Origin: Sansalvadorimonas sp.
GTDB taxonomy: Bacteria > Pseudomonadota > Gammaproteobacteria > Pseudomonadales > Endozoicomonadaceae
Assembly: GCA_965243775.1 (NCBI GenBank)
Contig: CBDEWF010000143.1
Location: forward strand, 177,958-201,957
Reading direction: 5' to 3'
DNA: 24,000 bases
Position numbers and translations under genes: made by a program. Each line of letters begins with the position of its first letter. Positions within the stretch are counted from its first letter, which is position 1. Shown here piece after piece: positions 1,584 to 3,101 of this stretch. The notes beneath the pieces are model-generated. The model did not search any database, was not told where the DNA came from, and was given only the letters and a program-made list of their open reading frames with translations.

Positions 1584-3101
1584 ATGATATCCAACTATCC
1601 GGCTATAACTTCGGCAATAAAACCCATAACAGAAACTGCTCTGGAGGAAAGTCGTGACCTCGACACCCTGTCAACCGAGAACCTCCTGAAGGTTTTTAAC
1701 ACACAGAACAAAAGGGTTGTCCGGGCTGTGGAAGCCGTTCTTTCTGATGTGAGACGCTGCCGCCAAAGCATTGTTGAGACCTTCAAAAATGGTGGGAAAA
1801 TTTATCTTACCGGTGCAGGCACATCACTGCGGCTGGCCAACTTTTCTGCAAGGCATAACCCCGACAATGTAAAAGTCGTTTATTGCGGTGGAGAAAAAGC
1901 TATCACCGACGCCGTAGAAAACGCGGAAGACAATGAAGAGCAGGCCGTAAAGGATCTTATTGCAAAGGGCATCACCGCCAAAGACATGGTGATAGGAATT
2001 GCCGCCAGCGGGAATACGCCTTATGTACGCAAAGCTTTAGAGTGGGCCAAGAGTCAGGGATGTAAAACAGGACATATCAGTTGCAGCACCCCCAACAAGC
2101 TTCAGCCCTTTTCTGACTATCCTGTGGAGCCCATTACCGAAGGTGAAGTGATCAGTGGCTCAACGCGTTTGAAAGCAGGCTCAGCTCAGCTGATAGCTTC
2201 CTTTATGCTGACGGGCTATATTTCAGAATCCAAGTTCCAGCAATTCCTGCAGGCCTGCCAGCTAGTTCCGCTTTCTGTTGAAGACCAACTGAAAGCCATT
2301 GCCTCACTGGTTGAAAGAGCAAGCCAGACACTGAAAAGCGGTGGCCGCCTCCTCTACACGGGAACAGAGTACTCGGGCCTGCTCGGCACCCTGGATGCCA
2401 GTGAGTGTCCTCCAACCTTCGGCACCAATCCAAAGGATGTGCAATGCCTGTTAGCCGGAGGGAACAATGCCCTGACAAGGGAACAGGAGAGCAAGGTGCT
2501 GGAAGACACTCAGCAGGCTCAAAAAGATGTCCAAGCATTACACATCACAGCAAAGGACATGATGATTGGTATAACCGACAATGCCATTTCACCCTGGCTG
2601 CAAACCGTATTGGCTGAAGCCCGCTCAAAGAATGCTTACACCGCCTGCCTGTCCTGCATGAACAAGGTGCCTTCCAATATTGAAACCGACTTCACCCTGA
2701 ATATTCCACCTTCTACAGAGGATCCCAAACTGACTCACGCCTGCACCAGCCTGACCCAGAAAATGATTCTGAATATGATCTCCTCCGGTGCCATGGTTCT
2801 GAATAACAAGGTATACGACAACAAAATGGTGGATGTTGTCGCCAACAATAAAAAACTGGTGAAACGGCAAATCAGCATAGTGGCCGAACTGGCTGAAGTG
2901 CCCCGTGACACAGCAGAGACAACTCTCAACCTTTGCAATCAGACTCTTGGCATGCCTCATAAACACTGCAAGGCTGCCATCGTCGTCCTGAAAAAAAGCT
3001 GCACCCCAGAAGAGGCTCAGAAAAAGCTAGATCGTGCAGACGGAAGGCTGCGAACTGTTTTGGAATTGGATTGCAGTGGCGCAACAGCCAAGAGCTGCTA
3101 G
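1584..3101 (+). CDS. Tandem-SIS MurQ-family protein with an architecture like glucokinase regulatory protein (GKRP). The start is uncertain: the ORF opens at 1383, and Met codons lie at 1539 and 1584.
   Basis: There are two MurQ-like halves. Half 1 has LSTENLLKVFNTQN, GGKIYLTGAGTS, AVENAEDNEE, IAASGNTPYV and GSTRLKAGSAQ. Half 2 has GGRLLYTGTEYSGLLGTLDASECPPTFG. It is followed by the MurQ C-terminal segment TQKMILNMISSGAMVLNNKVYDNKMVDVVANNKKLVKR. Confidence 0.8.
   Translation: MISNYPAITSAIKPITETALEESRDLDTLSTENLLKVFNTQNKRVVRAVEAVLSDVRRCRQSIVETFKNGGKIYLTGAGTSLRLANFSARHNPDNVKVVYCGGEKAITDAVENAEDNEEQAVKDLIAKGITAKDMVIGIAASGNTPYVRKALEWAKSQGCKTGHISCSTPNKLQPFSDYPVEPITEGEVISGSTRLKAGSAQLIASFMLTGYISESKFQQFLQACQLVPLSVEDQLKAIASLVERASQTLKSGGRLLYTGTEYSGLLGTLDASECPPTFGTNPKDVQCLLAGGNNALTREQESKVLEDTQQAQKDVQALHITAKDMMIGITDNAISPWLQTVLAEARSKNAYTACLSCMNKVPSNIETDFTLNIPPSTEDPKLTHACTSLTQKMILNMISSGAMVLNNKVYDNKMVDVVANNKKLVKRQISIVAELAEVPRDTAETTLNLCNQTLGMPHKHCKAAIVVLKKSCTPEEAQKKLDRADGRLRTVLELDCSGATAKSC

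Follow-up and report, generated by a model that had tools for sequence, protein, structure and literature searches.

MurQ, the bacterial etherase of MurNAc-6-P (N-acetylmuramic acid 6-phosphate), works as a homodimer in which both subunits contribute to each of two equivalent active sites. Two glutamates of MurQ are reportedly catalytic, and we take these to be Glu89 and Glu120 of the H. influenzae enzyme, with Glu89 (Glu83 in E. coli) as the principal acid/base. Each MurQ chain, as in E. coli, H. influenzae and Y. enterocolitica (PDB 4lzj, 4m0d, 1nri, 4s12; TIGR00274), has about 300 residues and consists of one SIS domain and one lid. Proteins of the type of the glucokinase regulatory protein (GKRP; PDB 4bb9, 3w0l, 4lc9, 4ly9; Naegleria, lancelet, frog) instead carry SIS-1, SIS-2 and lid, in that order, in a single chain. 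A preprint (10.64898/2026.05.08.723886) reports that the MurQ homodimer and GKRP superimpose, and do so at the active site as well, and that the GKRP-type proteins of Naegleria, lancelet and frog are active MurNAc-6-P etherases, as are the resurrected chordate, vertebrate and gnathostome ancestors. Regulation of glucokinase (GCK), according to the same work, had two prerequisites that were not acquired before the jawed vertebrates: an N-terminal extension and a GCK-binding loop. Duplication followed by unequal fusion is described, in the literature that we searched, for eukaryotic GKRP only. Here we analyse a bacterial gene of the same plan. It lies on the + strand of a 24,000-nucleotide stretch of Sansalvadorimonas sp. 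(hereafter the window: contig CBDEWF010000143.1, positions 177,958 to 201,957; contig C143 in our numbering of an assembly of 5.56 Mb in 165 contigs), and we argue that its product is probably a monomeric pseudo-dimer that acts as a MurNAc-6-P etherase, not as a regulator.

An earlier note, made from the letters of the window, had described two MurQ-like SIS halves that had lost different motifs, followed by one lid, in the domain order of GKRP and with the ECPPTF glutamate in SIS-2 only. All of this is borne out, and every motif that the note quoted stands where it was placed. Residues are numbered here from the Met at nucleotide 1584 (P0001, 505 residues). The open frame is unbroken over 1383-3101 (+), and the gene call in the protein database (P0002, 520 residues) starts at 1539. 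We consider 1539 the likelier start because QRWHAMIS, the segment that precedes Met-1584, is also conserved in P0003, an orthologue described below. The parts of the gene, with the evidence for each in brackets, are these:

1539-3101, + strand: whole gene, 520 residues plus stop (open reading frame; database gene call P0002; QRWHAMIS conservation; ratio of nonsynonymous to synonymous change, dN/dS, against P0003)
1656-2198, + strand: N-terminal helix and SIS-1 (residues 25-205), the better-kept half, with the phosphate-binding loops and the presumed second catalytic glutamate (47% identity to MurQ 99-207; Pfam GKRP_SIS_N, 6.6e-22; dN/dS 0.12; predicted local distance difference test score, pLDDT, >87)
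1812-1826, + strand: GAGTS loop (77-81), with T80 and S81 at human GKRP Thr109 and Ser110, and Leu82 next (alignments)
1833-1871, + strand: LANFSARHNPDNV (84-96), at the DASECPPTFG place of SIS-1, with His88 instead of the catalytic glutamate and the motif lost (alignment)
1911-1931, + strand: AVENAED (110-116), with E115 at H. influenzae MurQ Glu120 and human GKRP Glu153 (residue counting on alignments; E115 and D116 invariant in 12 tandem proteins)
2001-2024, + strand: AASGNTPY loop (140-147), counterpart of GKRP Ser179-Ser183, with Asn144 where MurQ has Arg (alignments)
2154-2180, + strand: SGSTRLKAG (191-199), with G192, T194 and R195 at GKRP Gly256, Ser258 and Arg259 (alignment; residue list of PMC4109836)
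2199-2288, + strand: linker (206-235), apparently what is left of copy 1's first lid helix, together with a connecting helix (residue 225 is matched to MurQ 40; model helices 197-209 and 215-233)
2289-2753, + strand: SIS-2 (236-390), fold and ECPPTF glutamate kept, EGAED and the domain's own phosphate loops degenerate (Pfam GKRP_SIS_2, 5.9e-12; model strands and helices; dN/dS 0.22)
2361-2378, + strand: GTEYSG (260-265), degenerate counterpart of GAGTSG (alignment)
2394-2423, + strand: DASECPPTFG (271-280), with E274 at H. influenzae MurQ Glu89 and human GKRP Glu348 (alignments; D271, E274, P277 and T278 invariant in tandem forms)
2754-3068, + strand: single C-terminal lid (391-495) (aligns with MurQ 206-301; Pfam GKRP-like_C, 27.0 bits; dN/dS 0.11)
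2847-2867, + strand: NKKLVKR (422-428), with N422, K424, L425 and R428 at human GKRP Asn512, Lys514, Leu515 and Arg518, the ligand contacts of the lid (alignments; PMC4109836)

The plan is most easily seen from the way in which MurQ matches the protein. A phmmer comparison with PDB sequences breaks MurQ into three pieces that are 35-47% identical to their counterparts: MurQ 40-109 falls on half 2 (residues 225-294), 99-207 on half 1 (94-202) and 206-301 on the lid (391-493). Neither half has the full set of catalytic motifs. Copy 1 is without a lid, although a remnant of its first lid helix can be recognised (AQLIASFMLT against AQKMVLNMLT in MurQ); copy 2 starts at about MurQ residue 35-40, without the N-terminal helix, and runs on into the lid with its motifs TQKMILNM (391-398) and NKMVDV (413-418). 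Pfam families follow one another in the order of GKRP, with GKRP_SIS_N and GKRP_SIS_2 above their cut-offs and GKRP-like_C, at 27.0 bits, slightly below its cut-off of 27.7. The MurQ models TIGR00274 (373.8 bits, cut-off 302) and PRK05441 (404.7 bits, cut-off 168) also match, both with scores summed over two stretches; either half by itself stays under the NCBIfam MurQ cut-off (219.6 and 160.6 bits).

Which parts of the MurQ active site survive, and where? On the phmmer alignment, residue counting places Glu89 of H. influenzae MurQ at E274 and Glu120 at E115. The catalytic glutamate of DASECPPTFG is present once, in SIS-2 (E274), with His88 at the corresponding position of SIS-1. The second glutamate of VEGAED and the Ser/Thr phosphate loops are likewise present once, in SIS-1 (E115, T80/S81, S142, S193/T194). 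The mirror-image site is lost: SIS-1 has His88 for the ECPPTF glutamate, SIS-2 has GTEYSG and ESKVL and is without the SGSTR loop, and there is no second lid.

The same residues can be set against those that bind sugar phosphate in GKRP. The legend to Figure 1 of PMC4109836 lists, as contacts of fructose phosphate in human GKRP, Gly107, Thr109, Ser110, Glu153, Leu178-Ser183, Gly256, Ser258 and Arg259 in SIS-1, Glu348 and His351 in SIS-2, and Asn512, Lys514, Leu515 and Arg518 in the lid. In a HMMER alignment to human GKRP the SIS-1 contacts map to A78, T80, S81, E115, A140-N144, G192, T194 and R195, and those of SIS-2 and the lid to E274 and P277 and to N422, K424, L425 and R428. There are two exceptions to the agreement: His351 is replaced by Pro277, as in MurQ, and the residues of the 140-144 loop differ. 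The site is therefore split in the same way as in GKRP, with the Thr/Ser loop, Glu153 and the Ser loop in SIS-1, Glu348 in SIS-2 and the Asn, Lys and Arg in the lid. Counting conservation across an alignment of 12 bacterial tandem proteins, we find G77, A78, G79, E115, D116, G143, G192, S193, R195, D271, E274, P277, T278, K424, L425 and R428 to be invariant and T80, S81, S142, T194 and N422 to be conserved in at least 90%. These alignments suggest that SIS-1, SIS-2 and lid together retain one composite ligand site of the GKRP type that includes both E115 and E274, the latter being placed close to the SIS-1 site by analogy, from the GKRP superposition. Because motif loss is complementary and the MurQ dimer superimposes on GKRP, a fused homodimer with one kept site would be the simplest reading of the gene.

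The predicted fold agrees with this architecture. An AlphaFold2 run on the alignment of 12 sequences gave a model with a mean pLDDT of 88.5 and a predicted template modelling score (pTM) of 0.88. In the comparison with known structures that the earlier note had proposed, a Foldseek search of the PDB, the top matches are GKRP (3w0l, 4bb9, 4ly9, 4lc9), which cover the whole chain over about 570 columns with query-based template modelling scores (TMq) of 0.74-0.79 at 18-20% identity. MurQ comes next (4s12, 4lzj), with target-based scores (TMt) of 0.81-0.86 but a TMq of about 0.5, corresponding to half of the query, at 32-34% identity. In the model, the two halves are packed as a pseudo-dimer like that of GKRP. 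The N-terminus is predicted to have about 24 disordered residues, and the N-terminal extension of GKRP is absent.

Selection appears to have acted on the gene as a whole. Only one close relative, P0003, was found among 5.8 billion protein clusters. This orthologue of 516 residues, on contig L006 of a separate metagenome assembly, is 75% identical and aligns over all 505 codons with zero gaps; the housekeeping proteins of the genome that carries it are 70-87% identical to those of the source genome. By the method of Nei and Gojobori, dN/dS between the two genes is 0.17 overall, 0.12 in SIS-1, 0.22 in SIS-2 and 0.11 in the lid. The C-terminal part of SIS-2, degenerate as its motifs are, has a dN/dS of 0.19; SIS-2 is thus still under purifying selection. 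With a GC content of 0.499 and a GC content at third codon positions (GC3) of 0.541, in a genome of 0.486 GC, the tandem gene resembles housekeeping genes in composition.

How might such a protein work? We suggest that the gene encodes a fused MurQ dimer in a single chain, in which a short linker joins copy 1, minus its lid, to copy 2, which has lost its first ~35 residues but kept the lid. After fusion, one of the two inter-subunit sites would have been maintained and the mirror-image site would have decayed. The kept site would consist of the SIS-1 phosphate loops and Glu115, Glu274 of SIS-2, and Asn422, Lys424 and Arg428 of the lid; SIS-2 would be retained chiefly as a scaffold on which Glu274 and the lid are presented. 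Its expected substrate, MurNAc-6-P, would be made by AnmK and converted to GlcNAc-6-P (N-acetylglucosamine 6-phosphate) and D-lactate, feeding NagA. The source genome encodes AnmK (482 bits), one of the genes that the earlier note had thought worth looking for, and NagA (262 bits), both unlinked to the tandem gene; it holds no second MurQ homologue. Adjacent frames for an NTP-transferase and an APH-family kinase, elsewhere in the genome (C112:116502-117859, -), look like the murU/amgK pair for MurNAc salvage of Pseudomonas-type bacteria. The tandem protein might therefore provide a catabolic exit for MurNAc-6-P beside an AmgK/MurU salvage route.

A number of observations weigh against this proposal. 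No MurNAc or GlcNAc gene is linked to the tandem gene, which has orphan or eukaryote-like neighbours in both genomes that carry it. MurQ homologues are found in none of 7 same-genus genomes, 1 of 17 further genomes of the family and none of 16 of the same order: MurQ is dispensable in this order, and the tandem gene is accessory. Finally, the site deviates from MurQ in three places. Leu82 follows GAGTS (GTSL), where 10 other tandem forms and the aligned MurQ and GKRP chains have Gly; VENAED, with Asn113, stands for VEGAED; and SGNTPY, with Asn144, stands for SGRTPY. These three residues could alter substrate specificity or rate.

The same observations bear on a first alternative, namely that fold and site are as we describe them but serve another reaction or substrate, for example as a lyase or isomerase acting on a different 6-phospho-sugar, such as a 3-O-substituted or amino sugar phosphate present in an animal host. 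The lineage-specific Leu82, Asn113 and Asn144 adjoin residues that contact the ligand, the gene has no linkage to MurNAc genes, relatives manage without MurQ, and the GKRP site is known to take several sugar phosphates. On the other side, the site is of the MurQ type in its two catalytic glutamates and in all of its phosphate and lid contacts, and the summed TIGR00274 score (373.8 against 302) exceeds the cut-off of an equivalog model. We regard a different substrate as unlikely.

A second alternative, which the earlier note had put forward as a possibility, is that the protein is a non-catalytic sensor or regulator whose site only binds a sugar phosphate and which controls a partner protein. 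Vertebrate GKRP shows that the fold can turn into a regulator, the architecture and predicted fold match GKRP, and the small motif deviations could be read in the same direction. But the catalytic residues are all retained under purifying selection: complementary loss leaves exactly one complete composite site, as much as a fused MurQ homodimer would require to remain an enzyme. The additions on which regulation by GKRP depends, the N-terminal extension and the GCK-binding loop, came later, in jawed vertebrates, and the source protein has neither. Nor is there an obvious partner. The source genome has no Hexokinase_1 match, and hence no glucokinase of the hexokinase family; its sole Glk, of the bacterial kind, is unlinked to the tandem gene, and no partner gene is conserved beside the tandem gene in the two genomes. 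An etherase is to be favoured over a regulator because one full site appears to be kept under purifying selection and because non-mammalian GKRP-type proteins are active etherases. We therefore hold a purely regulatory role to be decidedly unlikely.

A third alternative sees the protein as a symbiont factor that is secreted into animal cells and acts on host sugar-phosphate metabolism or on signals derived from muropeptides. Eukaryote-like or orphan genes adjoin the tandem gene in both genomes (in the window bZIP and SET, beside P0003 a MATH/TRAF-like gene), tandem forms from Endozoicomonas carry N-terminal extensions of about 630 residues without a known domain, and a form from Spongorhabdus has a signal-like N-terminus. 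The source protein itself, however, has neither a signal peptide nor an extension, and its GC content is that of housekeeping genes, unlike that of its low-GC eukaryote-like neighbours. We consider a host-directed role highly improbable for this protein.

Finally, the idea that assembly or annotation falsely joined two neighbouring murQ genes, or that the gene is a pseudogene in decay, has virtually no chance of being correct and was dropped: we found nothing in its favour, the frame is continuous, with no stop or frameshift at 2230-2290, where the earlier note had located a possible join, the gap-free 75% orthologue from an independent metagenome contig together with a dN/dS of 0.17 excludes it by sequence comparison, ten further bacterial tandem proteins share the plan, and the confident single-chain model packs the halves like GKRP.

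Returning to the reading of the protein as a one-site etherase, we can ask where its architecture came from. When 1.84 billion representatives were searched exhaustively with HMMER, some ten collinear tandem proteins, 28-33% identical, came to light, from an Alphaproteobacteria metagenome-assembled genome, Spongorhabdus nitratireducens, another Endozoicomonadaceae bacterium, Parashewanella spongiae and metagenomes. Endozoicomonas lisbonensis and E. gorgoniicola contributed, in a further homologue search, tandem forms of 1,062-1,071 residues (P0456, P0457), in whose first ~630 residues no Pfam family matches. In a genome of the same family as the source (locus L034), a 550-codon frame contains an exact stretch of Spongorhabdus nitratireducens WP_461536788.1, which puts the source genome in Endozoicomonadaceae. 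These bacterial relatives, several of them from symbionts of marine invertebrates and including members of the same family, share with the source protein the plan, the complementary loss and the invariant site residues. They differ from it in sequence, at 24-30% identity overall in the 12-protein alignment, and in that many have N-terminal extensions, a signal-like leader or a fused kinase.

All of these tandem forms show the same complementary loss, and all are nearer MurQ than vertebrate GKRP. The source protein scores 152 bits against MurQ, its nearest sequence, and 71 bits against the best GKRP (phmmer against the PDB); a profile of the family scores 284-300 bits against MurQ and 184-194 bits against GKRP. 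A protein from Naegleria has been reported to be closer to GKRP than to MurQ; the source protein is the opposite. Eukaryotic GKRP is absent from the listings of the homologue and exhaustive searches, which gave MurQ, fusions of MurQ with a kinase and rare tandem forms. Bacterial GKRP-like proteins were found neither in the flanks of 23 murQ loci nor in five Bacteroidota genomes. A search for PF22198 at E <= 1e-15 in 81 genomes of that class also returned none, but here the controls were silent too and the threshold was too strict. With MurQ, then, the source protein shares the SIS fold and lid, both catalytic glutamates, the phosphate loops and the Lys and Arg of the lid, the expected reaction and the pathway partners AnmK and NagA; it differs in having 520 residues, two SIS domains and one lid in one chain, with what appears to be one composite site. 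With GKRP it shares domain order, the best whole-chain fold match and the division of the site between domains; it differs in the low identity noted above, the missing extension and GCK-binding loop, and a genome without hexokinase-family glucokinase. In its mode of working it most likely resembles a GKRP-type single-chain etherase, and by descent it is most likely a derivative of MurQ.

Whether the tandem forms go back to a single fusion is a matter on which the trees differ. A tree of SIS cores did not resolve the grouping of tandem forms. By maximum likelihood, a tree built from SIS-1 and the lid divides them into four groups and makes the source lineage sister to a Solobacterium-type MurQ (support 96/80), and the tandem forms are united in 0 of 200 bootstrap trees. 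Approximately unbiased (AU) tests reject neither a single clade of all 12 tandem proteins (p 0.118) nor a grouping of the source lineage with a seven-member symbiont clade (p 0.25). SIS-2 of the source protein is on average 31% identical to ordinary MurQ, with a best value of 40.5% for the same Solobacterium-type MurQ, and at most 28% identical to the SIS-2 of other tandem forms. When the degenerate half is included, in a pseudo-tandem tree, most tandem forms come together, as they also would through long-branch attraction. On these comparisons we slightly prefer a lineage-specific duplication in situ, and a fusion parallel to that of GKRP seems at least as likely as common descent with it. 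The idea in the earlier note that the gene might be an evolutionary intermediate or a transfer finds no support: both halves are nearer bacterial MurQ and base composition is native. A recent transfer from a eukaryote was dropped on the same grounds.

One could imagine a more far-reaching history, in which the tandem MurQs of symbionts (the source protein, the ~1,060-residue Endozoicomonas forms, and those of Spongorhabdus and Parashewanella) share one fused ancestor and serve symbiosis, not housekeeping recycling, for instance through delivery to the host or by sensing or depleting muramyl or host sugar phosphates. A related thought is that a bacterial fused lineage, and not a eukaryotic duplication, was the source of the GKRP architecture. 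We regard these ideas as speculative and very doubtful.

The relatives vary further in ways that we record here. Three of the long forms (P0456, P0457 and P0123; 881-1,071 residues) are tandem MurQs in which the first 415-630 residues have a disordered appearance and no Pfam match; such long N-terminal extensions might mark exported or host-directed forms. The protein of Spongorhabdus nitratireducens, also of the same family (P0133, locus L034), is a second tandem MurQ that is only 30-33% identical and has a signal-peptide-like N-terminus, LCTFLLSASLPANA. A tandem MurQ of 830 residues (P0203) is fused to a BadF-type kinase domain. P0275 (466 residues) is a MurQ with a near-identical internal repeat, which reflects a very recent partial duplication or else an error of assembly. 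Fungal proteins of about 630-660 residues from Smittium, Umbelopsis, Aspergillus and Pseudogymnoascus (P0483, P0494, P0511, P0550, P0555) pair a MurQ domain with a kinase of the BadF type, and some of these are annotated as 'putative glucokinase regulator'.

The surroundings of the gene differ between the two genomes that carry it. In the genome with P0003, the tandem gene stands together with a 489-residue orphan and a MATH/TRAF-like gene (L006:8255-13190), between genes for ETF-QO and DUF1285. In the source genome the ETF-QO and DUF1285 genes adjoin each other on another contig (C18). Since the genes that flank the island in one genome stand together in the other, the location of the island differs between the two. 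A scan for promoters and terminators found nothing above chance. Directly downstream of the tandem gene in the window lies one further feature, which is context and not part of the enzyme:

3129-4329, - strand: IS630-type transposase, split into two open reading frames, DDE_3 at 3129-3689 and a helix-turn-helix (HTH) at 3862-4329 (domain matches)

The split suggests that this transposase is frameshifted or decayed. Further along the window, a bZIP gene (6331-6777), a SET-domain gene (10055-11983) and a 949-residue orphan (12024-14873) have GC contents of 0.38-0.45 and GC3 of 0.28-0.42, below both housekeeping genes and the tandem gene; the bZIP gene, for example, has a GC content of 0.383 and a GC3 of 0.282. 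Such low GC would fit a separate, later acquisition of these three genes.

In sum, the gene represents a rare bacterial form of an enzyme and an architecture that are both known. It is of interest chiefly for how fused dimers evolve and for an apparent enrichment of tandem forms in symbionts of marine invertebrates. It offers a clean natural case of a homodimeric enzyme with shared active sites that has been fused into a pseudo-dimer, where one composite site would be kept while the other decays. For annotation, proteins described as 'MurQ' with two SIS domains are better taken as probable one-site etherases than as regulators. Bacteria too, and notably animal symbionts, have the architecture that has long been treated as the route by which eukaryotes reached GKRP, and it possibly arose more than once. 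Such proteins would provide a tractable bacterial system in which to ask which steps in the evolution of GKRP (fusion, loss of one site, monomerisation) preceded its regulatory role.

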